This document shows, one piece after another, positions 1,696 to 60,760 of a stretch of DNA of 60,987 nucleotides. This DNA comes from an uncultured Anaerolineae bacterium (GTDB lineage: Bacteria; Chloroflexota; Anaerolineae; CAYYKQ01), in NCBI GenBank assembly GCA_964440965.1, contig CAYYKQ010000001.1:1-60987 (forward strand), in the 5' to 3' direction. Each line of letters starts with the position of its first letter. The first letter of the stretch is position 1. The notes below the pieces were generated by a model. That model was not told where the DNA came from, did no database searches, and saw only the letters and a program-made list of their open reading frames with translations. Both the position numbers and the translations under genes were made by a program.

Positions 1696-1707
1696 GGCAC
1701 CCTCCTT

Positions 1708-1785
1708 GGCGTCTTAGCGCCATAGCGTCGTAGCGTCTCAGCGTCCTTCCGCTAAGACGCTCTGCCGCTGCGACGCTGGGACGCT
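1708..1785. repeat. Intercistronic word-repeat hairpin (AGCGTC x4 then GACGCT x3)
   Basis: gcgtcttagc pairs with gctaagacgc. agcgtc words at 1724, 1732 and 1740 face gacgct words at 1772 and 1780. The element lies between the stop of one ACAD gene and the SD of the next. Confidence 0.7.
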
Positions 1786-1788
1786 AAT

Positions 1789-2952: not shown

Positions 2953-2972
2953 GGCTTCCCCCCTTATAGGAG

Positions 2973-3037
2973 GGTAGATTGGTAAACCGGTAGCTGGTAG
3001 ATTGGCCTCAATCCGCCAGCTCCCAGCTTACCAATCT
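2973..3037. repeat. Intercistronic word-repeat hairpin (ggtagattgg / ccaatct words)
   Basis: ggtagattgg occurs twice and ggtagctgg once on the left. ccagc x2 and taccaatct on the right are their complements. Confidence 0.65.
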
Positions 3038-3050
3038 CCCATTTCACCAT

Positions 3051-3839: not shown

Positions 3840-3863
3840 TTTTGTGACTCCTTTCCACCAAAT

Positions 3864-3923
3864 GCTAAAAGCTGAATGCTGAAAGCTATCCTCCGGCCTC
3901 CAGTTTTTAGCTTTCAGCTTTTA
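3864..3923. repeat. Intercistronic word-repeat hairpin (gctaaaagctgaa / ttcagcttttag words)
   Basis: gctaaaagctgaatgctgaaagcta faces tagctttcagcttttag. Two alternative pairing registers are possible. Confidence 0.65.
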
Positions 3924-5162: not shown

Positions 5163-5420
5163 GCTTCACCTCCTTTAACTTATCGCTGATAGCATATTGT
5201 TTATCGTTTCCACCGTGGTCGAAGTTGCCGCCACCCTTCGCGCACCGATGACGTTCTTTGCAAAGTTGCTTTCACTAGCCCTATCCTTTCGGTTGCAAAG
5301 GAGACAACAATTTGGGCGAAACCAGCCACGCCGTGTTAGGCGCAATTCGCCGTTGTTTGTAGGTTAGAGCACCGGGGCGAACCGGAGCCCACCCCGGTGC
5401 CTGATTGATCACGCTGACCT

Positions 5421-6632: not shown

Positions 6633-6696
6633 TGTTCAACTCCTTTCCGCTGTGTTTGTATGCGAATTACGCCTAGCAGCCGGCATATGCAAACTA

Positions 6697-6746
6697 CCAC
6701 GTCTTCAAAGGCATAACTGCCCGAGAGCCGATGCGGATGAAGCAGA
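6697..6746 (-). repeat. Orphan copy of the last 16 codons plus stop of the 7443-7724 gene (direct repeat, left copy)
   Basis: 47 of 50 nt are identical to 7446-7495 by hand alignment. It encodes the same ...RIGSRAVMPLKTW-stop peptide. Confidence 0.8.
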
Positions 6747-6766
6747 ACCACTTGTCAGAGCGCCTA

Positions 6767-7132
6767 TCAAAGGCTGCTCTGCCAACCTTCCACGATGCGA
6801 ACAGTTGATTCTGTTACAACGGTGAAGCGGTCAACAAGCCGATCAGCATACGACGCAAGCAGACGTTCTATCGCCGCAATCTTATTAGCCGCTCGCTCGT
6901 CTTCCAGACGCAGGAGAATCACACCCTTGTGCGGTTTCTTCAACCGAAAAATGAGTTCACCAAAATCCTTGTCATTCGTGACTAAGACGCGATTCTCAGC
7001 GTAGGCCTTTTGGAGAACCCAATCGTCAGTCGCCCCCCGAGCTTCCTCATACACTGAGAATACATCGTGGTGCCGTTGACGTAACCATCGGGCCACTGCC
7101 GGACCAGTGCATTCGTCCACCAGGAACCGCAT
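6767..7132 (-). CDS. DUF5615-family PIN-like (Mut7-C-like) putative toxin
   Basis: MRFLVDECTGPAVARWL...NRVLVTNDKDFGELIF. The start abuts the stop of the upstream DUF433 gene. Confidence 0.7.
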   Translation of the reverse strand: MRFLVDECTGPAVARWLRQRHHDVFSVYEEARGATDDWVLQKAYAENRVLVTNDKDFGELIFRLKKPHKGVILLRLEDERAANKIAAIERLLASYADRLVDRFTVVTESTVRIVEGWQSSL

Positions 7133-43655: not shown

Positions 43656-43741
43656 GCAATGGGCTCGCCGCCCTCCTTTGGATTTCGGAAATCTCCAAAA
43701 TCTAAAGGGAACCGACGGATAGACTCAGGGGCTGTGACTGA

Positions 43742-43780
43742 GCGAGGGATCGGCCTCCGTCAGGGGTCTCGATCCCTCGC
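43742..43780 (+). other. Perfect 11-bp-stem hairpin between the nucleotidyltransferase gene and the giant gene
   Basis: gcgagggatcg-(17 nt)-cgatccctcgc. This argues that 43659-43793 is leader rather than coding sequence. Confidence 0.55.
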
Positions 43781-43793
43781 AGGGTACGATCGA

Positions 43794-46700
43794 ATGAAAA
43801 GCTGTGGAATCGATCTGAAGCAATGGGTTCCCCTGCTGATCCTGGGACTATTGGTTACTGCGGCGCTGCTTCCGGCCTTCGCCATGGATGGCGACCGCCC
43901 CACGGTGGTGAGCAGTTGGCTCACCATCACACCCTCAATTGACGGTGTGATTGCAGGTGGGGAATGGGAGGACGCCACATTTGTTGACATCAGCTCAGGC
44001 GGCAGGGAGGCCTACGCCTACTTTAAGAACGATGGAGATTGGCTCTACGTGGCCATTGATGCCGTGTTTGATGAGGCGTACGAGGGCGATCCTTACTCCT
44101 GGTGGGACGAGGTGAGGATCACCTTCGACGCGGGCAACGATGGCAATCTGCTGTCCGACTGGCTCGTCAAGTTTGGAGCCCCGGCGGCGAAGGGAGTGGC
44201 GGAGCTATTGTCACCATGGGGCATCTGTCATCACATGGTGGTGGAGAGCGGGTTAGGCGCCGTCAACGATGCGGCCGGGAATGTCCAATATGAACTGAAG
44301 ATACCCCTCCATGTGGATGAGCCTGGCCTAGAAGGCCCTCTGGTGGGCAACCCAGGGGAGTCGGCCGGCATGGTAATTGATGTGGCAGATCACTGTGCAT
44401 TTGGCGGGTGCCAGAATCGGCTGTTGTATCCTGCTGATGCACAGATACCGATGTACTACGAATTCGACTGCATAGATGGCCCGGATCCCATCGTCCAGAC
44501 CTGGGCTGTTTTGCAGGTAGGTTCGCCTGAATGTTGCCCATGCGAATTAACCACTCGGGACATAACCGCGGAATTAGGATACCCTAACCCTGCCCGCCAC
44601 ACAGACATCATTGTAAAATTCTCTGCTGCATGCAGCGATACCGTCTGCGGGTTGGTTGCTGGATGCTCGTATCCCTGGGTGCACATCAAAGGGTGTGGAA
44701 TACATGGTATTGACTATTACGTGCTGGCACACAATCCGGACCCATACTATGAATTATCGGGCTATGTTGGGGACTATGTCAGGCTGACCGGCGTTGTCAT
44801 CGAGGGCTATGGCATTCTGGGTGACCCTTTTATCAGCGGGTATGACTCCATTGAGCGGATCTCCAACTGTTCCGATTGCGAACGCGAGTATTGCGATCCA
44901 GCATCCTTTACCGTCTTGCTGCATGAGCCGCCTGATACCACAACAGACATAACGAGCGATTTCTACCGGTATACCAAAGGCATCTATAGAGCGACTGTGC
45001 TAGCTGGAGAGCCCGGAACAAAAACAATAGAGGTGAGCGCACCAGACTGCCCGGCAATTGAAAGGGAATTGCACCTGGTTGGCGGCACCGTCTGCGGACA
45101 GGTTGACTGGGGAATCGAGTGGGCATCCATCCAAGGCTGCGACGATGTTGTGTATTATGTAAGTACCGATGGATATGGACTGCACGATAGGCTCGAAGAT
45201 TACGATGGCGAGTGGGTATTACTAAGTTCAGTCGTCTTCGAGGGCTATGTTGATGCCAATACTCCCCTCATTTCTAATTGCGACGACATCCTAGAAATCT
45301 CTGATTGTTCAGAGTGTTACAGCGATAAATTCATTGATGATTGCACAGAGATAGACTCTCCAGGGTACTATAAACTAACCTATGACATACACGAGAGCGC
45401 AGCCCAGGAATGCATAAAGATAACAGCCAGCGATGTGACCTTTGATGGCAATGGCCACTACATAAGCGCTGCTGAGATCATAGATGGGCTTGAGGACAGG
45501 TGTGCTATCTGCGTCGGTGGCTCGGGCACACTGAGCAATGTTATCGTTAAAAACGTCAGTATTCCGGGAGATTGGGATATCGGCATACGCTTTTCCGGGG
45601 TCGAAAATGGCAGAATAGAGGGTAACAGCCTTTGGAGGAACAAGGACTACGGAATCCTCCTCATCAATTCCAGCGGCATCGCCGTCGTGAACAATGACCT
45701 TGGTTACAACCTGGACGGGATCTTCCTCATGGACTCCGATGGCAACACGATCACCGACAACACCGCTCAGGGCCACTACAGCGGGATTGGACTGGTCCGA
45801 TCGAGCGGCAACGAACTCTTAAACAACACCGCTTCGATGAATTACCTGGGGGTAGACCTCTATCAGGAGTCTAACAACAACCTGATTTTAAGCAACACCG
45901 TAGAACTTAACCTCAACCAGGGTTTATATATCGGCAGCGATTGTACAGGCAACACGATAAGCCAGAATTTTGTCTGCTCCAACGATCAGTCAAGCCAGGG
46001 CTACGCTGATATTCATGCTGAGGTTCTGGATGTAAATTCTGGCACCGAAAACACCTGTGATAACACCTATAACTGGGATGACATCGGCACTACCGGATGC
46101 ACACATTGGTGTGATGACTGGGACAAGGACGGGATAAGTGACAGTGAGGACAACTGCCCGTATGATCCTAATCCGGATCAAAGCGATATGGATGGAGATG
46201 GGATAGGTGATGTCTGTGACTCCGATAAGGACGGCGATGGGGTTCCCAACGAGGACGATAATTGCCCTGAGGTTCCCAATCCAGGTCAAGGTGATATGGA
46301 CGGAGATGGAGTAGGGGATGTCTGCGACCCCGATAAGGATGGTGACGGGGTCCCTAACGAGGATGACAATTGCCCTGAGGTTAGCAATCCGGATCAGAGC
46401 GATCAAGACGGAGATGGGATAGGGGATGCCTGCGAACTTGAGCTGATAGGTCTGGAGGTAACCCAAGGCATCCAGAACCTAAGAAACAGCGTTACGCTGA
46501 TCGAAGGCAAACCCACTTATGTGCGTGCTTACGTCCGGAGCAATTCGGGCACGGTGCAGTATGTGACAGCCCATCTGATCGGCAGGCGCAACGGCGCTCC
46601 ACTTCCGGGCTCACCACTGAGCCCCGACAATATTGGGATGAGCGTTCATGTAAAACAAAACCCCAAGCGCGCCCAACTGAACGACAGTTTCTATTTCCGG

Positions 46701-49481
46701 CTGCCCGACGGGTGGATAAGTGGAACGATCGAGTTAGAGTTCGAGGGTATCAGCCATGACTTCGACTGCAGGGAGCCGGCCGAACAGGGCGGAACTGCCA
46801 ATGACTGCAAGGTTGAGGTGACGTTCACCCAGTCCCCTGAGCTTCAGATCAAGTTTCTTCTGTATTCATGGATTGACCTTGATCTCAATAAACACTATCC
46901 TAACAGCAATGATCTGGCTGAATTAGCCAAGGAAATCATGTCCATCTTCCCCATTCCCAAACTAGATTTCGAGATAGGCGTTGGAAGCACTTGGATTGGT
47001 ACCGGTCCACCAAGCACAGACTCTGACTTTAAGCAGATAAACCTGAGCACAAGTACGATACGCGCGACCGACGGTTGTTTCACAACATGGCCTGTGAACT
47101 GTAAACGGTACTATCTGACTGTGCTGGTTGACCCGCCAAAAGAAGGCACTATGGGAACAGCTACAATTGGTTCCGAGGTAGCTGTGGCCTATGTGGATGT
47201 TAACCGCACACCATCTCACGAACTCGGTCACTGTGCCGGTCGCAAACATACGAAGTGTAAAGGTGATGAAGACGATCCGGACGACAACTATCCGTATTAT
47301 CCGGGCGGTAGAATCAACCCCCCGTCTCGTTGGTTTTATTCACAATGGGATGAAGAAACCTTCTTTGGCTTCGATATCTACACAAAGGCAATCTATCACG
47401 AAACTACCGGCGATTTGATGAGCTACTGTGACCCTAGATGGCCTTCGGACTACACGTACGAGGGTATTCGCGAGCATCTGGCGGATCATTTCGGAGCGGC
47501 CTCTCTTTCCTCTCCCTCGTTGGTCCTGATGGCTGAGGAACCCGCCATTCTGGTCAGCGGTGTCGTCACCCCCGCCACAAGCAGTGGCAGGATAGCGTCG
47601 GTGCTTAATATCGAGTCCCCGGCTCCTGTCCCCGCTCCAGAGCCTGGCCCGTACGTGATCCGCTTTGAAGATGGTCTGGGGAATGAGCTGGCCTCGTACA
47701 GCTTTGAGCCTGACTTTATGGTGGCGTTTTGCAGACAGTGTGCCGATGACAGCGAGAACCGGATTGGGACCTTCGTATTGCTCCTGCCATGGGACTCGCG
47801 TACCGCCCGCATTGTGTTGTTACATAACGGGCAAGAATTGGATTCCCGCCTTGCATCGGCTCACGCGCCTACGGTGACGGTGCTGTACCCCAATGGTGGA
47901 GAGTTCCTGAGCGGCTCCACCGCAACACTCGGTTGGACTGCCCATGATCCGGACGGCGAGCCGCTGGAGTATCTGGTCCAGTACAGCACCGATGGCGGAG
48001 CAAGCTGGCAGACCCTGGTGACGAATTGGACTTCGACCACCTATGAGCTTAACTTGGGCATGATAGCCGGTACCGACCAGGGATTGCTGCGCGTATTGGC
48101 CAGCGATGGATTCCACACCGCCCAGGACCAGTCTGATGGAACGTTCAGCGTTGCCAAGCATCCCCCTCAGGCAAACATCTGGTCTCCAGAAGACAACACG
48201 CTGTACGTAGGCAATCAAACCATTACCTTGGAAGGCTATGCATATGACAATGAAGACGGGTTGCTAAGCGATGTGGCACTGAGTTGGAGTTCCAACCTAG
48301 ATGGCATTCTGGGCACAGGAAGCTCTCTAGCAGTCGTCGCCTCTACGCTAACGGAAGGCATCCACATCATCACTCTCATGGCACAAGATAGCGATGGACA
48401 AGTTGGTACAGACACTGTCACTGTCCAAGTCTACAGAGAAAGGCCCACATTGCCCCCCAACCTAGCAGTCGCGCCTATGACATTACTCTTCACCGCTGTG
48501 GAAGGCGGCGGACAAACTGCCGAGCAGGTTATCTCGATTCGAAACAGCGGTGACGGCCAACTGATGTGGTCGGCGGTCGTTGATCGGTCCTGGATTCTGG
48601 CAAGCCCCTTGGAAGGCACCGCTCCAAGCGAAATCTCTGTCGCCGTAGACCCAACAGGCCTGCCAGCCGGGGAATATACCGGTAAAATCACTATCACAGC
48701 TCCAGGAGCCGCCAACAGTCCGCAAACTGTTCGGATTGCACTATACGTTCAAAAACAGTACACCATCTACCTCCCCCTCATCCTGAAAAACTACCGCCCC
48801 GGCCCCCAGCCACCTATCACTCCCACACCCACCCCGACGCCTCCGACCAGGTCTTTTCCCGCTCCTGCAGGCACGCAACCAAACGGCTTGGCATGGGATG
48901 GGAGCCATCTGTGGATGTCCTCCTACATGGCGAACGGGGGGATATACATGTTGGAGCCATCGGACGGTTCGGTATTGAAGATGTGCACGCCCCCAACGGC
49001 TCAATATGGAGGGTACGGTGGCCTGGCATTCGATGGAACCTACCTCTGGCAGGCCGATTCCTACGGCGGAGGGATCTACAAGCTGAACACTGCTGACTGC
49101 TCCGTGGTCTCCACCATTCCAAGCCCCGACATGTACCTTAATGACCTGGCATGGGATGGCAATTATCTCTGGGTGTGCGGATATACGTCGGGAAAGCTGT
49201 ATAAACTGGAACCCAGCGACGGCTCAATAGTGGCCGAATTCGACATCCAAGGGGAAGGCCTCACATACGATGGGACTTATCTGTGGCTGTCCCAGGGCAG
49301 CAGGATCCTCAAAATCAACCCCTTAAATGGACGGGTGATCTCCTCTATGCAGACCCCATTTTCGCGCCCTGAGAGCCTGGCATGGGATGGCGAATACCTA
49401 TGGGTTGCCTCCTTTGATGAGGCGATGATTTATCGCATCGACGTCGGGACCTTGACGTCCTCGCCCGCTTTAGAGCGCTAA
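43794..49481 (+). CDS. Giant mosaic secreted/surface protein
   Basis: - Signal: [30 protein letters not shown].
- Internally duplicated Cys-rich module.
- PbH1-type beta-helix repeats (about 45.45-46.0 kb).
- Three TSP3-type units [34 protein letters not shown] (46.12-46.44 kb).
- Zincin motif [12 protein letters not shown] (47217).
- BNR motif STDGGASW.
- [10 protein letters not shown] followed by a PT linker.
- LAWDGxYLW propeller, glutaminyl-cyclase-like.
- An alternative start at 43659 is possible. Confidence 0.8.
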
Positions 49482-49563
49482 GTTAACGGCGAAGTTACCG
49501 CCGAGAATCCTGAAGGCTACCCTCGCTCCATTGAGCTGGGGGAATCGGTCAGAGGAAAAGGCC

Positions 49564-50964
49564 ATGAAAACGACCCTGATCTATGCCGGCATCGCCGGCT
49601 ACGGCTTTAAAAGCCTGGGAAAGGGGATGGAGGCGGGGTGGATAAGCCACGGCCTAGCCCATCTCTCCAGCGCCGCCAAGGCCCGAGGCTTTGAGGTCGA
49701 CCTCATCGATCTGAGGGGGCTGGAGAGCTGGGAACACTTCCGCCAGGTGCTCGCTGAGCGCGACCCCCACGTGGTGGGCCTCACCATGATGAGCGTGGAC
49801 TACAGCCCCGTCATGAAGTGCGTGGACATCGTTAAGGAGCTCAACCCCCGCATCCTCACCGTCGTCGGTGGGCCGCACCCCACCCTGATGGTGGATGAGG
49901 TGGCCCAAAACCCCAACATCGATTACATCGTCACCGGCGAGGGGGAGATAACCTTCCCAAAGCTGCTTGAGGCTATCGAGCGGGGTGATCCTCCTAAGGA
50001 GAAGGTGCTCGTCGGTGAGAGGCCCGTCCTGGACGAGCTTCCCTTTCCCGACCGCGACCTCTTCCTGGAGGAGTGGCGCAAGTGGGGTTACGATCTGGAC
50101 TCGCCAGAGGTGCCTTTCGTTCCCGAACTCCCGCCCCCCTTCCTGACCATTATCGCCGCCAGAGGCTGCAAGTACAACTGCAGATTCTGCCAGCCAGCCG
50201 AGCGCATCCTCTTCGGCCGGAAGGTGCGCTCCCGCAGCCCCGGCAACGTCATCGAGGAGTTGAAATTGCTGCGCGACAAATACCATTTCGCCAGCTTCAT
50301 GTTCCACGACGATTGCCTCACCGAGGACAGGAAATGGGTGAAGGAATTCTGTCGGCTCTATAAGGAGGAGGGCTTCACCCAACCCTTCGCCTGCCAATCG
50401 CGAGCGGATATCATCGTCCGCCATGAGGATATGGTGGAGCTCATGGCCGACACCGGATGCAAGCTCTATTTCATCGGCTTCGAATCGGGCAACGACAGGG
50501 TGCTGAGGTTCTTACGCAAAGGAACCACGCGGGAGATAAACCTGAAAGCTGCCCGAATCTGCAAAAAGTATGGCATCTCCATCTGGGCCAATTATATGCT
50601 GGGCATTCCCACCGAGACGAAAGAGGAGGTGATGGATACCATCTCCATGCTCAAGGAGATAGACCCCGACTACTACAGCCCGGCCTTCTACACCCCCCAT
50701 CCGGGAAGCGACCTTTACGAGTATTGCATGGAACACGACCTCTCGCTCATCAAGGATCACGCCAGCTATCGGCGCAACCCTACGGAGCCGAAGATCAAGG
50801 GAGTGGACTATGAGTTTCTGATGTGGGCGCTCGAGGAGTCGCGGCGCCGCAAGCCTTGGAACGCCTTCAAGCGCTGGACGCGCCGCAACTGGGAGCGCTA
50901 CGCCAACCCACGGAAAGCCTGGCGGAAGGCGAAGAGGTTAGCAGGTTTTGGAGTGCAAAAATAG
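49564..50964 (+). CDS. B12-binding-domain radical SAM protein
   Basis: N-terminal B12-binding-like Rossmann region, and the CxxxCxxC cluster RGCKYNCRFCQ. ATG 49564 is preferred over the tracked TTG 49531. Confidence 0.85.
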   Translation: MKTTLIYAGIAGYGFKSLGKGMEAGWISHGLAHLSSAAKARGFEVDLIDLRGLESWEHFRQVLAERDPHVVGLTMMSVDYSPVMKCVDIVKELNPRILTVVGGPHPTLMVDEVAQNPNIDYIVTGEGEITFPKLLEAIERGDPPKEKVLVGERPVLDELPFPDRDLFLEEWRKWGYDLDSPEVPFVPELPPPFLTIIAARGCKYNCRFCQPAERILFGRKVRSRSPGNVIEELKLLRDKYHFASFMFHDDCLTEDRKWVKEFCRLYKEEGFTQPFACQSRADIIVRHEDMVELMADTGCKLYFIGFESGNDRVLRFLRKGTTREINLKAARICKKYGISIWANYMLGIPTETKEEVMDTISMLKEIDPDYYSPAFYTPHPGSDLYEYCMEHDLSLIKDHASYRRNPTEPKIKGVDYEFLMWALEESRRRKPWNAFKRWTRRNWERYANPRKAWRKAKRLAGFGVQK

Positions 50965-50992
50965 GCGCACTCCAAAAGCGGAGGAATCCCTA

Positions 50993-53900
50993 ATGAACAT
51001 CTCTAAGATCTGCCGTCTCTCGGAAGAGGTGAAGACTGGAGAGCTTTTGGAGGCAGTCTTCATTGATCAGGCCATCAAAAACCCCGATTCCAAAGAGGCG
51101 GATAGGGAATTCGTCTTGCAGGCTACCTATCCTACTTATCCTTTACGGGCTTTGGTGGAGCATATAGCCCAGAAGCTGAGCGGGATACACCCTAAAGGCG
51201 CGGTGGTTGTTCGCGGCGACTACGGAAGCGGCAAATCTCACGCCCTTTTGGCCCTTTATCACCTGGCCTCAGCAGGAGAAGAAGCGGGGAGATGGCTGGA
51301 GCGGTGGAAAATCAGCGCCCGCTTCCCTCACACCAAAGCAGCCCTAGTGCAATTGGTCGCCGAGCAGCCGGAGACGCTTTGGGAACTCCTCTTCGAGCGG
51401 GCTGGCAGGCCGGAGCTGAACCAGGAGGTGCGCAGCTATCCCACCAGGGAGCAATGGGCCGCCCTCGCCTCCGAGGCCCCCGCGCTGCTCATCATTGACG
51501 AGCTGGAGCTCTGGTTCGGCCAGTTGGCCAACGGCCTCCCGAAGGAGCGCACTAAGGCCGCCTTGCAAAACCTCCTGGAGGCCGCGAACCTGCCCGATGT
51601 CCCGCTTGCGGTGGCCATCTCCGTCTACGGGCGCGACCTTGCCCTTATGGGCATCATTAACCGAACCCAGCCTCCATCGTGGGATGTGGGGACGGCGGAG
51701 GATCGCGACAAAATCGTGCGCCATCGCCTGGTGGAGGCCATAGACGAAGGGAAAGCCAATGCAGTTATCGCCCGTTATACCAAAGCCTACCAGGAAGCCC
51801 AATCCGAACTGCCCCTCATCTCCTCCCGCCTGGCCGACCTCCAAAGGGAAATGCTGGAGACCTATCCCTTCCATCCATCCTTCCTTAGGCAGGCTTTCCA
51901 GGTCTACGCGGCAGCGCCCCACCATGAGAGCACCAGGGGAATCATCTTCCTGGGAGCCACTTTGCTCCGTCGCTACGCCCGCCAACGGGATCTGCTCCTC
52001 ACCGGCGATCTGGACATAACGGACGAAAGCGTGGCCAGCGACCTGCGCAAGCTGGACCCGGACCTGGTAGCCAATGCTCACGAAGATCTGGCTCGGAGGT
52101 GCCAGGGCCTTGACCACGCCAGCGGGATCGTTGGCACCATCCTCCTGCACTCTTTCTCCCCCTACGAGGCCGCCGGTGCTACCAGGGAGGATGTGTTGGT
52201 GGGCAACTTCCGCCCCACCCTCAACATCACTGACCTTCAGAGCCAGATTGACGCCGTCTTCCAGGAAGCCTGGTTCATTGATGAGATAGAGGAGAGGTTC
52301 GTCGTCACCAAAGAGGTGGTCCTGCTCAAGAGGATCGAGCAGCAGGCCCGCGCCCTCCTGGAGACCCCAGAGGGCAGGCAGCGGGCCGCCGAGCGCATCA
52401 TGGAGACCCTGCGGGAATTCATGGCCCCGGAAATGGTCTTTCTGTATCCTGAGGACCCCTTACCCGAGGCCCTGGCGGGGAAGGGCTTGAGGTATGTGGT
52501 CTCTTTGAAACCCCTCTCGGAGGAAGATGCCCTGGAGATGCTTCAGGGGCGAGGAAACACCGTTATCTTGATCGCTCCTAAACTCTCGGTGCGAGGCCGC
52601 CTCACCCATGATAGGGAGATGCTCCTTCGGGCTGCGCGGGTGCTGGTGTGCGAGGATCTGCTGGGACGGGGCACCAAGCGCCAAAGCGATGTGCGCCGAC
52701 ACAAGGGGCGCTTCGAGCGCGAATTTAAACAGGCGCTCAGGGAAAGCTACGGGCGCTGGATGCGCATCAGCCGCACCAACGAGCTGGGCGAGGAGCCCGA
52801 GTACGTAGTGCGAGCCATAGGATGTGCCCTTGCCCCTGATGCCATCAAAGGGGCCATCCTCCGGGAAAACGATGTGGAGGTAGTCAAGGGCGGGATAGGG
52901 AAGGTGCTGCGCTACTACGGACGGAGCGCGCCTAAGGGGTCCGAACAAGCCGGGCCAACCTTCGGTCAACTGCGGGAGGAGCTTCGCCGCCACACGGGGT
53001 TACCTATCCTCTTGCAGCCGGAGGACCAATTGGCCGAGGCTCTCCGAAGTATGATACGAGACGAGCATCCCGGCACCGGCGCCATTGTCTCAGTGGGACG
53101 TGCCCTCTATGGCTACGATGCCCGCCCCTTGCCTTCCCTGACCGACGACTCCCGGGTGTGGTTACGAGCCTATGCTCCTGAACCCCCTGCTCCTCAGGAT
53201 GTGAAGCACGCTGTACGACAAGCCTTGGCGGAGTCGGCAACAGAGGGCAGGGCGGTGCAGAGCATTAAGGGCGAGGTGACCTACCATCTAGGGGTCTCCT
53301 CCCGAGATGTCCTGCGAGCCCTGGCGGAGTTGGTCAACGAAATGAATGCGGTGTTGGAGCAGGGCGAGAAGCGCTTCCCGGATGACGGGCACCTATCCAG
53401 CGAGGCTATCGCCGACAATGCCGAGGTCTGGCTCTCCCCTTACGCTCCGCCCGATGACCGGCAGGCACGCGAACGCATCGTGCACCTGGTCACGGCAGCG
53501 GAGCCGGACGGCATCACTTTGGGCGAACTCAAGACCCACCTGAGCCTGGAGGGAATCGAAGAGGCGGCGATCGAACGAGGGGTAAAGCAGCTCCTTCTGC
53601 GCCGTGAAGTGGCGGCTCTGATGGGGGAGCCCGAGGCCCCCACTCTCATCCACGACCCATCATTGCTCACCGACGAGGTGCTTATCAGGCTCCCTGTAGT
53701 GGGGCCACCCCCGCCCCTGCCACCGGAATGGGAACCTTTCTCCCTTTCCCTCGGCCCTTACCGGCTGCTCGACCAATTCCTGCGCGACCTGGAGGCCCGG
53801 TTGCCTGAAGAGGTTCGCATCCGGTCTGCGACCTTCCAAGTTGTCCCCACTGAGGATACGCCAGATCCCATCTTCGGCCGGGACGAAGAACTGGCAGAGT

Positions 53901-54067
53901 TAGCGGAAGTAACGACGCAGCACCAGCTAATTTGCACCCTTGCGCACCCCTCCAGCAAGGCGACTTTCCTCAGCGTCAGCCGGCGGTTAGTGGAGCGCCT
54001 GGAACAGGTGGGTAAAGTGTTATTAAGCGTCGAAGTGTCTGGCGAGGTGCCAAGACATGGCCGTTGA
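50993..54067 (+). CDS. DUF499 / BrxC(PglY)-like P-loop ATPase
   Basis: Walker A VVVRGDYGSGKSHALLALYHL and Walker B ALLIIDELELW, followed by a long helical C-terminal region. SD ggagga precedes ATG 50993. The stop overlaps the next start by 11 nt. Confidence 0.7.
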   Translation: MNISKICRLSEEVKTGELLEAVFIDQAIKNPDSKEADREFVLQATYPTYPLRALVEHIAQKLSGIHPKGAVVVRGDYGSGKSHALLALYHLASAGEEAGRWLERWKISARFPHTKAALVQLVAEQPETLWELLFERAGRPELNQEVRSYPTREQWAALASEAPALLIIDELELWFGQLANGLPKERTKAALQNLLEAANLPDVPLAVAISVYGRDLALMGIINRTQPPSWDVGTAEDRDKIVRHRLVEAIDEGKANAVIARYTKAYQEAQSELPLISSRLADLQREMLETYPFHPSFLRQAFQVYAAAPHHESTRGIIFLGATLLRRYARQRDLLLTGDLDITDESVASDLRKLDPDLVANAHEDLARRCQGLDHASGIVGTILLHSFSPYEAAGATREDVLVGNFRPTLNITDLQSQIDAVFQEAWFIDEIEERFVVTKEVVLLKRIEQQARALLETPEGRQRAAERIMETLREFMAPEMVFLYPEDPLPEALAGKGLRYVVSLKPLSEEDALEMLQGRGNTVILIAPKLSVRGRLTHDREMLLRAARVLVCEDLLGRGTKRQSDVRRHKGRFEREFKQALRESYGRWMRISRTNELGEEPEYVVRAIGCALAPDAIKGAILRENDVEVVKGGIGKVLRYYGRSAPKGSEQAGPTFGQLREELRRHTGLPILLQPEDQLAEALRSMIRDEHPGTGAIVSVGRALYGYDARPLPSLTDDSRVWLRAYAPEPPAPQDVKHAVRQALAESATEGRAVQSIKGEVTYHLGVSSRDVLRALAELVNEMNAVLEQGEKRFPDDGHLSSEAIADNAEVWLSPYAPPDDRQARERIVHLVTAAEPDGITLGELKTHLSLEGIEEAAIERGVKQLLLRREVAALMGEPEAPTLIHDPSLLTDEVLIRLPVVGPPPPLPPEWEPFSLSLGPYRLLDQFLRDLEARLPEEVRIRSATFQVVPTEDTPDPIFGRDEELAELAEVTTQHQLICTLAHPSSKATFLSVSRRLVERLEQVGKVLLSVEVSGEVPRHGR

Positions 54068-55031
54068 CGAGCATTTCATCCAAGAGCTCATCGAAGGAGA
54101 GGATCCGCTCGCCGTCATCTGGCAACAGATGCGGCGAATTTACGCCGTCGAGGATTTCCCCCCTGACCTGAGGGCCTTCATGGACGAGAGGGAGGAGCAG
54201 CTCAACGGGCTGGAACAGGCCGTGTACGATGGCTTCTTCGAGGCCTACGACCAGCTATTGGAAGCTGCCCAGGCCCAGGATGCAGGCTATGTGCTCTCCC
54301 TTTTCGATCGCTGCCCCTTGGTGGTCATCGCCGATTCGCTGAGTGTGCGGGAGGCGGCGCTCCTAGAGAGGCGCTGGGCTGGCGGGGGGTGGGAGGCACA
54401 GATGGAGGGGTTCGCCGTCGTCCCCTTCCCTCCCACAACCGAGAGCCTGAGCCGCCTGCTTCTGGGCACCCAGGGCCCAGCGCTGGGGCGCAACAGACCG
54501 GGATTCGATTACTGCTACGTGGCCGGGCCAGAGCACATCCCCCACATGCCTTCGGCAGGCCCGCTTCTCGTCTGGATGCGCCTGCCGGATACGGCGCTGG
54601 AGGAGGTGACCCTGGCCCAGACCCATACCGTTGCCGATGCCTTTGACCTGACCGTCGAGACCTTGGAGCGCGTGCTGGCGGCTGGGCGGGAGGAAGCCTT
54701 GCTCACCAGCGACCACGGCTACCTTTACGCCCGCTCCCCGGCCCACTACTGGCGGATGCCCCTAAAAGTCGAAGAAGTAGCCCGTTCCACCTTTCCCCGG
54801 GCTAGCCGCTTTCAGGAGGCCGGACACGAACGAGCGCGAGGGCTGAGAAATCACGAGTCGCCCCGGAGGGAACAGCGCTTCTTCGCCTTCACACGGACCC
54901 ACGTGGCCGTGCGGGGCCGCTACTGGTGGGGCACGGCCAGCCCCAACGAAAGATGCACCGCCCACGGAGGGCTGTCCTTCGTGGAGTGTTTGGTGCCGAT
55001 TTTGAGGCTGAGTAGGAGAACCTCCGGATGA
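54057..55031 (+). CDS. Short PglZ-like alkaline-phosphatase-superfamily protein (324 aa)
   Basis: The motif order is that of the PglZ domain: VVIADSLSVRE, then LLTSDHGYLY, then AHGGLSFVECLVPIL. Both ends overlap the neighbouring genes. Confidence 0.55.
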   Translation: MAVDEHFIQELIEGEDPLAVIWQQMRRIYAVEDFPPDLRAFMDEREEQLNGLEQAVYDGFFEAYDQLLEAAQAQDAGYVLSLFDRCPLVVIADSLSVREAALLERRWAGGGWEAQMEGFAVVPFPPTTESLSRLLLGTQGPALGRNRPGFDYCYVAGPEHIPHMPSAGPLLVWMRLPDTALEEVTLAQTHTVADAFDLTVETLERVLAAGREEALLTSDHGYLYARSPAHYWRMPLKVEEVARSTFPRASRFQEAGHERARGLRNHESPRREQRFFAFTRTHVAVRGRYWWGTASPNERCTAHGGLSFVECLVPILRLSRRTSG

Positions 55032-56722: not shown

Positions 56723-56751
56723 TTTTGGCTCATAAATCGAGAGGTATCATT

Positions 56752-59343
56752 GTGATCTATTATATCGAGCACGATTTCCCCATCGAAAAGCTCAACCCCC
56801 TGGCCCAGCGGGAGGCCAACGCCAAGCGACCCATCGCCATGCTCCACAAGTGGTGGGCCAGGCGGCTGGGCTGCGTCTTCCGTACCATCATCCTGGCCAG
56901 TCTCATCCCCGCCCAGGAATGGAAACGGCTGGACGAGGAGGTGCGCAGGGCGGGCCTCGATGCCTGGACGGCCCTCTATTACCGGGAACACCCCAAGGCC
57001 AAGGCCCTCATCGAGCGTTACCTTAAGGACAAAATCGTCCTCGACCCCTTCATGGGCGGGGGAACCACCATCGTGGAGGCGCTCCGCTTAGGATGCAAGG
57101 TCATCGGGGTGGACGTGAACCCCGTGGCCTGGTTCATCACCAAGAAGTCCATCGAGCCAGTGGACTTGGACAAACTGGACGCCGCCTTCGAGCGCCTGAG
57201 GGAGGAGGTGGCTCCCGAAATCCTTCACTTCTACCGCACCCGCTGTCCCCATGGCGACCACGAGGCCGATGTGATGTACGTCTTCTGGGTGAAGCAGGTG
57301 CGCTGCACAAGCTGCGGGCGGAAGACGAGGCTCTTCAACTCCTTCCGCCTGGCGACGAGGAAGGGCAAAGATGTAGTCTTCTGCCCCCGCTGCTACTGGG
57401 TGGGCGAGGTGGAAGAGGGGACGCCGCGCGTGGTCTGCCCCGACTGCGGGCACGAGTTCGCGCCCCGTAAGGGCTACTCCGGGCGGGGGAAATTCCGCTG
57501 CGAGCACTGCGGCCACATGGACAGGCTGGTGGACTGGGTGCGGCGCACGGGCCAGGCTCCCGAATACGAGATGTTCGCCATCGAGTATTGGTGCCCCACC
57601 TGCAAGGTGCGGGGCTACAAAGGCGCCGACGAGTTTGACCGGGACCTCTACCGCCAGGCCTGCCTGGAGTTCGAGCGGGAGAAGGCCAAGCTGCCCCTGC
57701 CGGAAGGCGAAATCCCCGCCGAAGGGCGCAGCGACCCCCGCCCCATCAGCTTCGGCATGCGCCACTGGACAGACCTCTTCAACCCCCGCCAGCTTCTGTG
57801 TCTGGGGAGGCTTCTAGCGGCCATTTTGGAGATAGAGGACAAAGCCGTACGGGAGCTGATGGTGGTGACGCTGTCGGATGCAGCTGATACTAACAATACG
57901 CTTTGCACTTATTTGGCACCCCGTTCGGAAGTAGAGCGAATGTTTGGGCGACATGCCTACTGGCCCTCTGACCAATTTGTAGAGAACAACGTTTGGGGTA
58001 CCAAGTTTGGCCGAGGCACATTTTCGGCAGTTTTTAACAAAACTCGCCGTGCTCTAACTTGGGCACTCCACCCCAGCGAAAGGGCTTATAACAGTCGTGA
58101 CAGAGTACCTACTGATGACACCGCTTGCGCTTGGGTTAGCAACAATATTGATGAAGTCACCAACGGCTCAGAACGGGCTTTTCTTTCTGCTCGCAGTGCC
58201 GAGGACCTCTCTTACATCCTATCCAAATCCGTAGATGCGGTTATCACCGACCCACCGTATTACTCAAATGTTCAATACGCGGAACTCTCAGACTTCTTCT
58301 ATGTCTGGCTACGGGCTGCGCTTGCCGGCACGTACTCAGAATTCAATGCGCCCATTGTCCCTAAAGAAACGGAAATCGTGGTCAATGTTAAGGCAGGCAA
58401 GACAGATGAGCATTTCCGTCAAGGATTGCTACGCTGCTTCAAAGAGTGTCATCGTGTGCTCAAAGATGAAGGATTAATGGCTTTCACCTTCCATCACGAG
58501 AAGGCCAAGGCCTGGGGTGCTGTTTTGGAGGCCGTGCTAGAAGCCGGTTTTGACATAGAGGCAGTATGGACTTACCACTCGGAAAAAACCGGCGGAGCAC
58601 ATGGAGCTGGCATTCGCTTCGACACCATCATCGTCTGCCGGAAGCGGCTGGAGGAGGCGGAGCCGGCGGCGTGGGGGGAGCTGAGGGACAAGATCGTGCT
58701 GGCCGTGAGGGAGGAGCTGAGGCGGCTGCTGGAGAACGGAGCGGCACTATCCACCGAGGACGTCTTCGTCATCACCATGGGCAAGGCCCTCTCCATCTAC
58801 TCCCGCCACTGGCCCAAGGTGCTCCACGACGGCCAGGAGGTCAGGCTCACCCAGGCCATCGAGGACATCGAGTCCCTGGTGGACGAGCAAATTGACGCCT
58901 ACTTCGGCATGGTCACCCCTCCCTGGCTGGACGTGCTATCCCGGGTCTACCTCCAGCACCTGGCCCGCAGGAAGGCGGTGACCAAGGACACACTGGTCAA
59001 AGCCTGCCGCACCAGGGGGTTGGACTTCGCCGAGCTGGAGGGGGCAAACTACATCAAAAGGGCGAAGAAGGCCGGCCTCTACGAGGTCCTCTCCCCCCAG
59101 AAGCGCCTGAGGTGGCTGGAGGAGAGGCTGGAGGAGGGCGAGGACCTCTCGCCCATAGACCGCGCCCATTACCTCTACGCCCTCTACAATGCACGTAGGC
59201 CCCTGCGGGGCGAAATTCCCAGGGTTTACACCAGGGGGCTGGAGGAGGTCTGCGATGCCCTGTATCGCATCACAAGGGATAGGGCCTACGAGGTCATCGG
59301 CGGGCAGATAAAGCGAGTGAAGGAGCAGATGGCGTTGATGTAA
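56752..59343 (+). CDS. DUF1156 zinc-ribbon N6-adenine DNA methyltransferase (COG1743-type, PglXI-like)
   Basis: N-terminus FPIEKLNPLAQREANAKRPIAMLHKWWARRLG. Motif I LDPFMGGGTT. Five CxxC pairs. Motif IV AVITDPPYYSNVQY. GTG 56752 has the SD gagagg. The tracked start TTG 56725 is an alternative. Confidence 0.8.
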   Translation: MIYYIEHDFPIEKLNPLAQREANAKRPIAMLHKWWARRLGCVFRTIILASLIPAQEWKRLDEEVRRAGLDAWTALYYREHPKAKALIERYLKDKIVLDPFMGGGTTIVEALRLGCKVIGVDVNPVAWFITKKSIEPVDLDKLDAAFERLREEVAPEILHFYRTRCPHGDHEADVMYVFWVKQVRCTSCGRKTRLFNSFRLATRKGKDVVFCPRCYWVGEVEEGTPRVVCPDCGHEFAPRKGYSGRGKFRCEHCGHMDRLVDWVRRTGQAPEYEMFAIEYWCPTCKVRGYKGADEFDRDLYRQACLEFEREKAKLPLPEGEIPAEGRSDPRPISFGMRHWTDLFNPRQLLCLGRLLAAILEIEDKAVRELMVVTLSDAADTNNTLCTYLAPRSEVERMFGRHAYWPSDQFVENNVWGTKFGRGTFSAVFNKTRRALTWALHPSERAYNSRDRVPTDDTACAWVSNNIDEVTNGSERAFLSARSAEDLSYILSKSVDAVITDPPYYSNVQYAELSDFFYVWLRAALAGTYSEFNAPIVPKETEIVVNVKAGKTDEHFRQGLLRCFKECHRVLKDEGLMAFTFHHEKAKAWGAVLEAVLEAGFDIEAVWTYHSEKTGGAHGAGIRFDTIIVCRKRLEEAEPAAWGELRDKIVLAVREELRRLLENGAALSTEDVFVITMGKALSIYSRHWPKVLHDGQEVRLTQAIEDIESLVDEQIDAYFGMVTPPWLDVLSRVYLQHLARRKAVTKDTLVKACRTRGLDFAELEGANYIKRAKKAGLYEVLSPQKRLRWLEERLEEGEDLSPIDRAHYLYALYNARRPLRGEIPRVYTRGLEEVCDALYRITRDRAYEVIGGQIKRVKEQMALM

Positions 59344-59425
59344 TTTTTGAGTGCACAAGCTCTGCAAAAAGCTTGAAAGATTTAACGCTCGCTACCGAAG
59401 TGGGCGGCAATAGGAGGTAAGGTAT

Positions 59426-59656
59426 ATGGCCTTGGAAATTGCTCCCAGAATTGTGGTTGACCCGACCGTCCGTTTTGGCAAACCGGTCATCAAAGGCACG
59501 CGGGTGCCCGTGGATTTGATCGTGGCAAAGCTGGCCGGGGGGATGAAGATTGAAGAGGTGGCCAAGGAATACGATATCACGGCAGAGGACATATATGCTG
59601 CCCTCGCTTATGCGGCTAAACTAATAGCCAGCGAAGAGATAAGGGCGGTGGTATGA
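59426..59656 (+). CDS. DUF433-family putative antitoxin (second copy)
   Basis: FGKPVIKGTRVPVDLIVAKLAGGMKIEEVAKEY. Overlaps the toxin start by 4 nt. Confidence 0.75.
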   Translation: MALEIAPRIVVDPTVRFGKPVIKGTRVPVDLIVAKLAGGMKIEEVAKEYDITAEDIYAALAYAAKLIASEEIRAVV

Positions 59657-60018
59657 AATGGCGATTCCTGGTTGATGAAGATATGCCCCGCTCTACAGCG
59701 GCAATGCTCCGCGAGGCAGGACACTATGCGGAGGACGTCAGAGATGTTGGGCTTCGCGGTTGTAGCGACCAGGAGGTCTTTGATTACGCCCAATCCCAGG
59801 GAGCTATCTTAGTAACCGCTGATAAAGGCTTTGCTAACGTGCTACGATTCCCTCTTGGAAGCCATTCCGGCATTATCGTAGTCCGAGTGCCTGGTGTATT
59901 GCCAACGAAAGCGGTAAATGGAGAGCTACTGCGGGTTTTAACCGAATTAGAAGGGCAGAAGTTAGAAGGCGCGCTGATCATCGTAGAAGTAGGCCGCATC
60001 CGCATCAGGCGTCCATAG
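59653..60018 (+). CDS. DUF5615-family PIN-like putative toxin (second copy)
   Basis: MKWRFLVDEDMPRSTAAMLREAGH...ILVTADKGFANVL. Confidence 0.7.
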   Translation: MKWRFLVDEDMPRSTAAMLREAGHYAEDVRDVGLRGCSDQEVFDYAQSQGAILVTADKGFANVLRFPLGSHSGIIVVRVPGVLPTKAVNGELLRVLTELEGQKLEGALIIVEVGRIRIRRP

Positions 60019-60137
60019 TTGTTTTAGAGGGTGTCTGAAGAAGCCAAAGCCTACTGCCTCTCCCAAGTTCGTGAGGAGGCTGAGGGAAGCGCGGGATTTT
60101 AGGGCGGTTGGAGAAACAAGGGGTGCTGATGTGACAA

Positions 60138-60181: not shown

Positions 60182-60598
60182 ATGGCCTTAGCGCCCGGCT
60201 TCTACATCATTGAGAAGAGCCAACTGGGGAAGGACATCCCCAGGCCTAAGGAGACGATGAGCATCATCGCCTTCCTGAGAGCAGTGCGGAGAAGGGAAGA
60301 GCTTCCCAAAGAGGTCTGCGTCATCGGGCTGGAGAGGCTCCTCTACCGCGCCGCCGACAGGCGCAAGGCCGCCAGGGTCATCCAGCAAGCCCTTTACAAC
60401 CCTCAGGCCGTGCACCACCTGCGACGCCAGGCGCTGGTGGTGGTCTTGCCCCTCGAATACCTGGACCTCTCTCTTCATTGGAAAGCGGGCATCAGGCGAG
60501 GCAGAATAGCAGAGGAAGTCTTCGCCGTGGAGTGGGTCTTCCCCCGCGCGGACATCAGAGCCGTGGGGGAAACGGACGTGTGCTACAGCATGTTCTAA
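60182..60598 (+). CDS. Hypothetical protein (138 aa)
   Basis: SD gaggagg precedes the ATG. No family recognised. A comparably long antisense ORF exists, so coding status is uncertain. Confidence 0.35.
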   Translation: MALAPGFYIIEKSQLGKDIPRPKETMSIIAFLRAVRRREELPKEVCVIGLERLLYRAADRRKAARVIQQALYNPQAVHHLRRQALVVVLPLEYLDLSLHWKAGIRRGRIAEEVFAVEWVFPRADIRAVGETDVCYSMF

Positions 60599-60637: not shown

Positions 60638-60760
60638 ATGCGCAACATCTTGGTCACCGGCGGGGCCGGGTTCATTGGCCCCAACTTTTGCGACGCCGAG
60701 GCGGTGGAGCGCACGACCCGGGAGCACAGGATAGGCGCCATTTTAGACTCCGAAGTATGA
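60638..60760 (+). pseudogene. Truncated N-terminus of an NAD-dependent sugar epimerase/dehydratase (RmlB-like)
   Basis: MRNILVTGGAGFIGPNF is the canonical Rossmann start with SD ggggagga. The sequence then becomes unrelated and stops after 40 codons. Confidence 0.5.

Follow-up and report, generated by a model that had tools for sequence, protein, structure and literature searches.

The window, meaning the whole stretch of 60,987 nucleotides that was analysed, carries the following run of genes, centred on a short PglZ gene:

50948 to 54067, forward strand: DUF499-type (BrxC-like / HmaC-like) AAA+ ATPase, 1039 aa from TTG 50948
54057 to 55031, forward strand: stand-alone PglZ (the short PglZ), ATG start, 324 aa
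55028 to 56653, forward strand: Schlafen/AlbA_2 and HATPase_c_4 protein with a C-terminal wHTH-like region, 541 aa, an accessory insertion in the operon
56725 to 59343, forward strand: DUF1156-type N6-adenine DNA methyltransferase (HmaB-like / PglXI-like), 872 aa
59426 to 60018, forward strand: toxin-antitoxin-like inserted pair, DUF433 at 59426-59656 and DUF5615/PIN-like at 59653-60018
60182 to 60598, forward strand: DUF8076 protein, 138 aa, the fourth conserved component (precomputed PF26277)

The initial annotation had described the second of these genes as a 324-aa stand-alone PglZ-like ORF with IADSLSV, DHG and HGG motifs, and the translation bears this out: VVIADSLSVRE occupies residues 89-99, TSDHGYLY residues 217-224 and AHGGLSFVECLVP residues 302-314. 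It had also taken the protein to consist of the core only, which did not hold, as the compact alkaline-phosphatase/NPP-type alpha/beta core (residues 88-320) is preceded by an N-terminal helical region (residues 1-85) that is conserved in the family. Both gene ends overlap their neighbours, an observation rightly used to argue against truncation: at the 5' end, where a GAGG Shine-Dalgarno-like element precedes the ATG, there is an 11-base overlap with the upstream ATPase ORF (stop at 54067), and at the 3' end start and stop codons overlap as ATGA, the downstream ORF running from 55028. Relatives are equally short; public ones include the locus tags E3J21_19765, ACUVXG_13150, EYP85_07625, J7M22_12665 and G4O03_00480. 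Homologues form 90 clusters at 90% identity, with lengths of 220-346 aa and mostly about 320, and an exhaustive profile search of clusters at 50% identity found 408 matches at E<=1e-3 and 143 at E<=1e-10. The 150 best of these matches are all at most 362 aa long, and in the full-length members among the best the alignment spans residues ~1 to ~320; the possibility raised earlier, that homologous loci would show the ORF as a piece of a longer gene, found no example among these 150. Measured against L006, its closest relative, the dN/dS of the gene is 0.23. All this marks the short PglZ as a genuine, conserved, full-length compact enzyme and no fragment.

Profiles were needed to place the protein in a family. 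A Pfam scan of the short PglZ gave no match at E<=0.1, PF08665 (Pfam PglZ) included, NCBIfam returned nothing usable for the single protein, and a phmmer search of PDB sequences with the single protein gave chance matches only. Among relatives, PF08665 matches 21 of 42 at E<=0.01 (best 9.7e-5), and the six matching relatives that were checked singly all score below the gathering cut-off of 25 bits (best 24.6). Searched against PDB sequences, family profile A3 matched the BREX PglZ chains 9nv3_C (8.7e-13) and 9zn5_B (2.7e-11) as well as PorX (6.3e-10), with no other phosphatases among its matches, and a narrower family profile reached 1.7e-5. PADLOC PglZ models match the window protein at E 3.9e-5 and its relatives down to 3e-12; no other PADLOC family matches the window protein or its relatives, distant members included. 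The AlphaFold (AF2) model of the short PglZ (pLDDT 93.6, pTM 0.92) was compared with PglZ structures by Foldseek, a check that the initial annotation had proposed: in the PDB, ranks 1-17 are PorX PglZ domains (E 6e-10 to 5e-8), among them the complex with pGpG, 7pvk, rank 18 is the BREX PglZ 9zn5_B (E 8.4e-8), and NPP/ENPP enzymes come after both, at E >=2e-5. Foldseek probability is 1.0 for the PglZ matches, while TM scores on the query are modest (0.44-0.54) because the alignments extend over extra domains. By profile and predicted fold, the short PglZ thus belongs to the PglZ clade within the alkaline-phosphatase/NPP superfamily; the earlier alternative of an unrelated phosphodiesterase or nuclease has to be given up, PADLOC PglZ being the only defence-library match and PorX and BREX PglZ outranking NPP in fold.

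The predicted active site is distributed over five positions in the gene:

54333 to 54335, forward strand: codon of D93, predicted metal ligand, opening the IADSLSV motif
54438 to 54440, forward strand: codon of T128, predicted catalytic nucleophile, in P125-x-x-T128
54588 to 54602, forward strand: codons of D178-T-A-L-E182, D-x-x-x-(E/H) metal-ligand motif
54711 to 54716, forward strand: codons of D219-H220, DHG motif, predicted metal ligands
54963 to 54965, forward strand: codon of H303, HGG motif, predicted metal ligand

D93 is invariant in 42 + 101 sequences; its counterpart in Acinetobacter PglZ is the Asp of IISDAF, in an alignment segment that lacks significance by itself. Position 128 holds T in 99 of the 101 distant representatives, the other two having S; it aligns with the PSYTT threonines of the solved PglZ 9zn5_B (again in a segment not significant by itself), and the corresponding threonines, T538 of E. 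fergusonii PglZ and T272 of PorX, are both required for activity (PMC12205998). By homology, T128 is therefore the predicted nucleophile of the short PglZ. The IADSLSV motif had been read as a metal/nucleophile region; the metal-binding part of that reading stands, with D93, and the nucleophile part does not, T128 lying in the invariant P-x-x-T; the motif also contains an invariant serine, S96. D178 is likewise invariant and lines up with FVDMMSH in PorX and TIDAMGD in BREX PglZ, E or H occupies position 182 throughout the short PglZ family, and the invariant D219-H220 falls on the DHG motif in PglZ and PorX. H303, aligned with the HGG of PglZ and PorX, is H in 100 of the 101 distant representatives (the remaining one has a gap), and corresponds to H741 of E. 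fergusonii PglZ and H500 of PorX (PMC12205998). Altogether D93, S96, E99, P125, D178, D219, H220 and E310 are invariant in the 101 distant representatives. Such constancy of the catalytic set over more than 100 divergent representatives speaks for selection on catalysis.

The DUF499/DUF1156 setting that had been recognised at the outset was confirmed by Pfam, PADLOC and NCBIfam. In the ATPase, AAA_22, DUF499 and NACHT are matched in Pfam, each under cut-off, PADLOC gives HmaC (6.5e-18) and DUF499 (4.8e-16), NCBIfam gives DUF499_antiphage (6.5e-27, under cut-off), and the translation contains a Walker A motif GDYGSGKS and a Walker B motif LLIIDE. Its homologues align from residue 16 of the 1039-aa ORF, and the true start is probably ATG 50993, giving 1024 aa. 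In every examined locus except L006 and L010 it directly precedes the short PglZ gene; in those two, short insertions lie between them. A B12/radical-SAM gene further upstream (49531-50964) was considered as a part of the system and rejected, being adjacent only in L006; its overlap with the ATPase vanishes once the latter starts at the probable ATG. The methyltransferase shows FMGGGTT, then an insert with CxxC pairs, then DPPY, the insert being a recognition domain with two 4-Cys zinc fingers. It matches N6_N4_Mtase (8.6e-17) and DUF1156 (1.9e-09) in Pfam, HmaB (7.4e-47) and PglX|PglXI (1.1e-30) in PADLOC, and DUF1156_antiphage in NCBIfam (3.6e-46, under cut-off).

Together with the DUF8076 protein, the ATPase, the short PglZ and the methylase make up a conserved four-gene module, whose linkage was found in Anaerolineae, Armatimonadota, Fervidibacter, Poribacteria, Dehalococcoidia and others, and all four genes show purifying selection relative to L006 (dN/dS 0.15-0.23). 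The remaining genes are accessory. The Schlafen-type protein (SLFN_AlbA_2 2.9e-20, HATPase_c_4 1.3e-18 in Pfam) is confined, within the set of related loci examined, to the window and L006, and its architecture is described as a frequent backup effector beside BREX and BREX-related (BR) loci (PMC12839542). The inserted pair (DUF433 9e-24, DUF5615 5.4e-24 in Pfam) has a counterpart in L006, where the DUF433/PIN cassette sits between the ATPase and PglZ genes. Elsewhere the accessory genes are GmrSD (L001), a DCD-domain gene (L026) and AAA_21 + DUF4276 (L015).

The small DUF8076 protein evolves fast. Most related loci have a homologue, beside the methyltransferase or upstream of the ATPase, and in helicase-bearing loci the gene lies between methyltransferase and helicase, the slot expected for an inactive-STAND gene. 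A direct Pfam scan of the protein gave no match, its profile found nothing among PDB sequences, and its sequence has no Walker A motif. Its AF2 model (pLDDT 93.4) retrieved only P-loop folds (KaiC/RecA/AAA) by Foldseek, at a non-significant best E of 0.02-0.03, with no significant match in PDB or BFVD; the BrxB-containing structure 9zn5 was not matched. A separate inactive-STAND (BrxB/BrxF-like) gene is present in 82% of published Type-3 BR taxa (PMC12839542), and the DUF8076 protein may be this iSTAND component of the literature.

Stand-alone PglZ in DUF499/DUF1156 systems has been described under the name "Type-3 BREX-related systems" (Rakesh & Krishnan, NAR, January 2026, PMC12839542), with KAA0250883.1 as a representative and PglZ as the proposed effector. 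The window locus resembles these systems in that its PglZ is a separate gene with no fused domains and with the metal-binding residues kept, and in that its operon has a DUF499 AAA+ ATPase, a DUF1156 N6-MTase and a small extra gene. Distant family members show the exact published order (ATPase-PglZ-MTase-small gene-Snf2 helicase), and the two 4-Cys zinc fingers of the window methyltransferase are a feature that the paper reports for a subset (PMC12839542). The difference is that the window locus is without the BrxHII-like Swi2/Snf2 helicase in the DNA available. From this architecture we infer that the locus is a member of the Type-3 BR set. That PglZ can stand alone beside DUF499 and DUF1156 genes had thus been published earlier, which limits what is new here; the earlier suggestion that the protein would define the minimal PglZ unit was pre-empted by the same work.

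Other known systems are further away. PorX shares a helical element before an NPP-like core with a Thr/His active site, but differs in its N-terminal receiver domain, its two-component signalling role and its oligonucleotide cleavage, and has no methylase/ATPase defence operon. PorX-type PglZ domains cleave oligonucleotides and leave genomic DNA uncleaved. With Hma (Type-1 BR) the likeness lies in the ATPase and methylase, which score best against HmaC and HmaB in PADLOC, whereas the HmaA Snf2 helicase-nuclease is absent from the window and PglZ fills the nuclease slot. BREX type I PglZ from E. fergusonii and Salmonella (PMC12205998) has the same core motifs (Asp, Thr nucleophile, D-x-x-x-D/H/E, DHG, HGG) and also works beside a BrxC-like ATPase and a methylase. 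Canonical PglZ proteins had been described as several hundred residues longer, and indeed the solved chains have 879 aa (9zn5_B) and 887 aa (9nv3_C), so that the window protein is about 550 residues shorter. Missing from it are the N-terminal inactive Swi2/Snf2 P-loop domain (residues 1-96), which binds BrxB, as well as the HTH-like units, the C-terminal beta-sandwich and the greater part of the long helical segment. Even the core is compact: D93 to D219 takes up 126 residues, against about 170 positions in the Pfam PglZ model. As the BrxB-binding domain is absent, any PglZ complex must be built differently. BrxA, BrxL and PglW had no matches among the scanned locus proteins in Pfam, PADLOC or NCBIfam, and the window locus does not qualify as canonical BREX (types 1-6).

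The BrxHII-like helicase is a core part of the published Type-3 BR subtype (PMC12839542), and its absence at the locus, set against that status, may be new. Of the large ORFs in the 61-kb window, those scanned with Pfam include no helicase, and when one was sought just past the window's end, the next gene, following DUF8076, was a remnant of a dTDP-glucose dehydratase that is intact in L006. Nor is there a helicase-sized ORF in the available flanks of six related loci (L004, L005, L006, L001, L026, L028) or within +/-10 kb of L015, which lies in a complete genome. The window and the loci of three further sequence clusters are without a Snf2 helicase in the DNA available; the loci of two more distant clusters (L023 and P0199) have one. 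The lack of a helicase could also mean that the system has decayed or depends on factors in trans, with purifying selection speaking against the first. It is conceivable, and we put it forward tentatively, that the window holds a minimal BREX-related system of four genes that does without a helicase and recurs in several divergent lineages, Chloroflexota, Armatimonadota, Fervidibacterota and Poribacteria included. One carrier, Fervidibacter sacchari PD1, is a cultivated strain with a complete genome, NZ_CP130454, in which the genes lie around 2.38-2.40 Mb; Dehalococcoidia DUEO01000001 is another complete carrier of the PglZ family.

On the evidence of homology, fold, conservation of catalytic residues, gene linkage and purifying selection, we consider it likely that the short PglZ is an active two-metal phosphodiesterase or nuclease and the effector of a methylation-based, BREX-related anti-phage system. 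We infer its substrate, its complex, the order of events and function without a dedicated helicase as follows. The DUF1156 N6-adenine methylase would mark host DNA at the motif that its zinc-finger insert recognises. The DUF499 AAA+ ATPase, whose translation is coupled to that of PglZ and which is probably in a complex with it, would serve as scaffold and as sensor on unmethylated DNA, with the DUF8076 protein as a putative adaptor or sensor comparable to BrxB. The short PglZ would then nick or cleave the invading DNA, with Thr128 as the predicted nucleophile and D93, D178, E182, D219, H220 and H303 as predicted metal ligands.

The same enzyme could instead be a PorX-like signal phosphodiesterase, whose cleavage of cyclic or linear oligonucleotides, be they second messengers or products of infection, would switch the system on or off and leave invader DNA uncut. 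PorX provides the best structural matches, the pGpG complex included, BREX PglZ cleaves cyclic and linear oligonucleotides in vitro (PMC12205998), and the compact core is without the DNA-binding or sensor domains that flank the core of BREX PglZ. We nevertheless regard such a role as unlikely: no cyclase or other gene generating a nucleotide signal is conserved in the module in the loci examined, and sister DUF499 systems fill the PglZ slot with PD-(D/E)XK or HKD DNases (PMC12839542), which suggests a DNase role. Less probable still is a mainly structural or regulatory PglZ, supporting methylation by a complex of methyltransferase and ATPase or acting as a phosphatase on protein or DNA ends, with restriction left to accessory nucleases (the Schlafen-type protein, the PIN toxin, or GmrSD in relatives); accessory effectors do often lie in or beside the module, but they vary by locus while PglZ is constant, and the full catalytic set is invariant.

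We give very little credence to the view that the ORF is a piece of a disrupted long pglZ, or an unrelated phosphatase/NPP that came to lie beside a methylase by chance. The silence of Pfam on the window protein and the lack of anything meaningful in the single-sequence PDB search would fit it. A fragment or a mis-assembly was rejected on the uniform shortness of the relatives, the coupled ends and the absence of any long PglZ among the best 150 matches, and a chance-adjacent housekeeping enzyme on the coupling at both ends, a gene order kept across phyla, and profile and fold matches that put PglZ first.

To our knowledge, the mechanism of BREX anti-phage defence has not been settled so far, and the nuclease activity of PglZ was reportedly demonstrated only in 2025. 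Against this background, a naturally minimal PglZ, with no fused sensor or adaptor domains and apparently no helicase partner, offers a small four-protein system in which to examine PglZ as the putative restriction effector, its control by the BrxC-like ATPase and the part played by the small, possibly BrxB-like protein. If the four-gene system defends autonomously, BREX-type restriction would need no translocase, only a bare PglZ core, a BrxC-like ATPase, a methylase and a small adaptor, and this would be the smallest tractable model of the BREX mechanism. There is also a consequence for annotation: the short PglZ family escapes the Pfam PglZ model at threshold, and those of its public records that we saw are all named "hypothetical protein".

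The short PglZ ORF of the window starts 11 bases before the end of the preceding ORF (54067), with a GAGG element 5' of its ATG, and its 3' end forms an ATGA start/stop overlap with the next ORF, which begins at 55028. Reading the window sequence bore out this ORF, the overlaps at both ends and the motifs quoted in the initial annotation, namely VVIADSLSVRE (residues 89-99), TSDHGYLY (217-224) and AHGGLSFVECLVP (302-314).

Genes around the short PglZ in the window
50948/50993-54067, + strand: DUF499-type AAA+ ATPase, HmaC/BrxC-like; Walker A GDYGSGKS, Walker B IIDE
54057-55031, + strand: short PglZ; ATG start, 324 residues
55028-56653, + strand: Schlafen/AlbA_2 + HATPase_c_4 + wHTH protein
56725-59343, + strand: DUF1156 N6-adenine methylase, HmaB/PglXI-like; FMGGGTT, two 4-Cys zinc fingers, DPPY, in that order
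59426-60018, + strand: DUF433/DUF5615-PIN pair
60182-60598, + strand: DUF8076 protein, 138 aa

Truncation had been judged unlikely, and the existence of a large family of equally short full-length proteins agrees with this. A word-seeded search gave 90 homologue clusters at 90% identity (220-346 aa, mostly near 320), all unnamed or "hypothetical", and a profile search run exhaustively over 1.84 billion representatives gave 408 clusters at 50% identity with E<=1e-3 and 143 with E<=1e-10. The best 150 profile matches are all <=362 aa, with no long PglZ among them, and the full-length homologues in this set align over residues about 1 to 320. The N-terminal 85 residues are thus a family feature rather than a remnant, and the reading of the ORF as a fragment is refuted.

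A Pfam scan of the window protein returned no match, and the matches of its relatives to PF08665 were all sub-threshold, probably because the core is compact: D93 and D219 lie 126 residues apart, a stretch to which the Pfam model allots about 170 positions. Matches in the defence-system model library PADLOC were to PglZ models only (E 3.9e-5 for the window protein, down to 3e-12 for relatives). Against PDB sequences, the family profile found BREX PglZ (9nv3_C, 8.7e-13; 9zn5_B, 2.7e-11), then the PglZ domain of PorX (6e-10), and no phosphatases besides these. The Foldseek comparison proposed in the initial annotation, made with a confident AlphaFold2 model (pLDDT 93.6, pTM 0.92), ranked PorX (down to 5.8e-10) and BREX PglZ (8.4e-8) ahead of NPP/ENPP enzymes and phosphonoacetate hydrolase (2e-5 or weaker). 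Profile, predicted fold and active site thus mark the protein as PglZ-like. The alternative once entertained, a distinct phosphodiesterase or nuclease, is rejected, as both kinds of match point to PglZ first, and an unrelated phosphatase is refuted; together with the fragment reading, we give it practically no weight.

Residues D93, S96, E99, P125, D178, D219, H220 and E310 are invariant in 42 close and 101 distant sequences. Of the distant ones, 99 have T at position 128 and two have S there, and 100 have H at position 303.

Active-site segments of the window PglZ and their counterparts
D93: Asp of IISDAF in solved PglZ (HMM segment, by itself not significant)
P125-x-x-T128: PSYTT in solved PglZ (HMM segment, by itself not significant)
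D178-x-x-x-E182: TIDAMGD in PglZ, FVDMMSH in PorX (significant HMM alignments)
D219-H220-G: DHG of solved PglZ/PorX (significant HMM alignments)
H303-G-G: HGG of solved PglZ/PorX (significant HMM alignments)

In E. fergusonii PglZ, T538 and H741 are required for metal binding and phosphodiesterase/nuclease activity, and their PorX equivalents are T272 and H500 (PMC12205998). By equivalence to T538 and T272, the predicted nucleophile is T128. The IADSLSV region, first read as metal/nucleophile region, does hold the metal-binding Asp (D93), but the nucleophile falls outside it.

Related loci were sampled from Anaerolineae, Armatimonadota, Fervidibacter sacchari PD1 (complete genome), Poribacteria, Dehalococcoidia, NC10 and unbinned metagenomes. 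PglZ directly follows the ATPase gene, mostly overlapping it, except in L006 (the closest relative) and L010, where the pair is kept apart by short insertions. Wherever the contig is long enough, the methylase and DUF8076 genes are found with few exceptions, either 3' of PglZ or 5' of the ATPase. ATPase, PglZ, methylase and DUF8076 genes make up a conserved module of four genes, into which accessory genes have been inserted. All four are under purifying selection (dN/dS 0.15-0.23 against L006; 0.23 for PglZ). The TTG start of the ATPase at 50948 is probably wrong, most homologues aligning from residue 16 (ATG 50993); begun at the ATG, the ORF no longer overlaps the B12/radical-SAM gene on its 5' side (49531-50964). 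That gene adjoins the module only in the closest relative and is probably part of the surrounding sugar/polysaccharide cluster.

DUF499-centred "BREX-Related" (BR) systems were defined by Rakesh & Krishnan (Nucleic Acids Res, 27 Jan 2026; PMC12839542). As described in its main text, the Type-3 BR subtype (569 taxa) comprises a DUF499 ATPase and a DUF1156 MTase, some of these MTases carrying two 4-Cys zinc fingers. Its helicase is BrxHII-like and not fused to a nuclease, PglZ has a gene of its own and is the proposed primary nuclease, and 82% of taxa also encode an inactive-STAND (iSTAND) protein separately. The DUF8076 gene is probably this iSTAND component. Its confident structure model gave only weak fold matches, every one a P-loop fold, and its profile found nothing among PDB sequences. 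The P0199 locus (ATPase-PglZ-MTase-177-aa gene-SNF2 helicase) has exactly the published arrangement, and L023 reads ATPase-PglZ-[TA]-MTase-DUF8076-SNF2 helicase. Since these distant family members occupy the Type-3 BR arrangement, the central idea of the initial annotation, a stand-alone PglZ, is real and correctly interpreted yet not novel, and by itself would not surprise a specialist.

The helicase is another matter. Pfam identified none in the large ORFs scanned from the window (61 kb), and its presence varies at the locus level, which is the scope of this comparison.

Helicase at the locus, by sequence cluster
Cluster 3 (the window's; L004, L005, L006, L009-L011, and L015, complete genome, +/-10 kb): none
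Cluster 17 (L001, GmrSD after DUF8076): none
Cluster 10 (L026, DCD-domain gene after DUF8076): none
Cluster 16 (L028): none
Cluster 1 (P0199): present
Cluster 21 (L023): present

The window and clusters 17, 10 and 16 thus differ from the published subtype, which retains a helicase; the main text of PMC12839542, as distinct from its locus lists, does not mention helicase-less loci. What remains of interest is this apparently helicase-less four-gene form, recurring in several lineages, one with a complete genome, as well as the very compact PglZ core with its conserved helical N-terminus and a short-PglZ family missed by standard annotation. The carrier with the complete genome, F. sacchari PD1, is presumably a cultivated strain.

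This analysis demonstrates homology, fold, conservation of the catalytic residues, linkage of the genes and purifying selection, and from these we consider it probable that a two-metal PglZ phosphodiesterase/nuclease is the effector of a methylation-based, BREX-related defence; its substrate, complex formation and independence from a helicase are what we infer. The methylase would mark self DNA, the ATPase would scaffold or sense unmethylated DNA, and PglZ would nick or cleave the invader. An ATPase-PglZ complex is likely because the genes are translationally coupled, and DUF8076 may act as a BrxB-like adaptor or sensor. BREX PglZ binds BrxB via its N-terminal domain (residues 1-96), which short PglZ lacks; the obvious candidate for an interface is its conserved helical segment, residues 1-85. 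That the protein is instead an oligonucleotide phosphodiesterase of the PorX kind, with signals as its substrate, seems to us unlikely. More improbable still is a mainly structural or regulatory PglZ, with the killing done by accessory nucleases; such genes do lie within the locus, alongside a PglZ whose catalytic residues are conserved.

The defence island is located inside a dTDP-sugar cluster. The DNA after DUF8076 opens a dTDP-glucose-dehydratase-like gene (MRNILVTGGAGFIG...), which is intact in L006 (18121-19146) and preceded there by an aminotransferase gene. In the window, a 40-codon ORF at 60638-60760 (starting MRNILVTGGAGFIGPNF) has the start of a dTDP-glucose 4,6-dehydratase-type gene, diverges from the L006 gene and then stops (window end 60987); this may reflect truncation of the gene, rearrangement or faulty assembly where the contig ends. 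Between thymidylyltransferase and radical-SAM genes, 43659-49481 encodes a protein of 1940 aa, secreted or on the cell surface, with right-handed beta-helix/NosD, thrombospondin type-3 repeats, BACON, Big_7 and DUF6923 repeats; L006 lacks it at this position and has a second thymidylyltransferase copy instead.

Two of the insertions, the Schlafen-type gene and the TA cassette, are specific to lineages. The former, between PglZ and methylase, occurs in the window and L006 only; in L006 (10975-12707) it is broken up into ORFs of 476 and 136 aa, which suggests frameshift or decay there. Proteins combining Schlafen, a minimal histidine kinase and wHTH are described as frequent backup effectors beside BREX and BR loci (PMC12839542). 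The DUF433 + DUF5615/PIN cassette (window 59397-60019, L006 9198-9819; about 85% nucleotide identity) lies in the methylase-DUF8076 gap in the window but in the ATPase-PglZ gap in L006, so it has moved within the operon; L009 and L023 also have embedded DUF433/PIN or PIN pairs of a similar kind. In L013 (Methylomirabilota/NC10, JACQHM010000196), one ORF at 2309-3367 fuses ATPase pieces (residues ~16-113 and ~355-437) to the C-terminal half of short PglZ, a deletion derivative, and the system is thus decaying in that genome. Within 1233-6922 of the L015 locus of F. sacchari PD1 (NZ_CP130454 2381675-2402613), the methylase reads as two ORFs (445 and 447 aa) and an AAA_21/AAA_15 ATPase + DUF4276 pair lies between methylase and DUF8076; a DUF4276 gene also lies 5' of DUF8076 in L012. 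The defence genes that flank the four-gene module vary: it is followed by GmrSD + Hypoth_Ymh in L001 (13877-16494, Dehalococcoides MAG) and by a DCD (Dev_Cell_Death, EVE-like) domain gene in L026 (7942-8811), and it is preceded by a PD-(D/E)XK gene and a Piwi-domain (pAgo) gene at P0199 and by NurA and HerA in L018.
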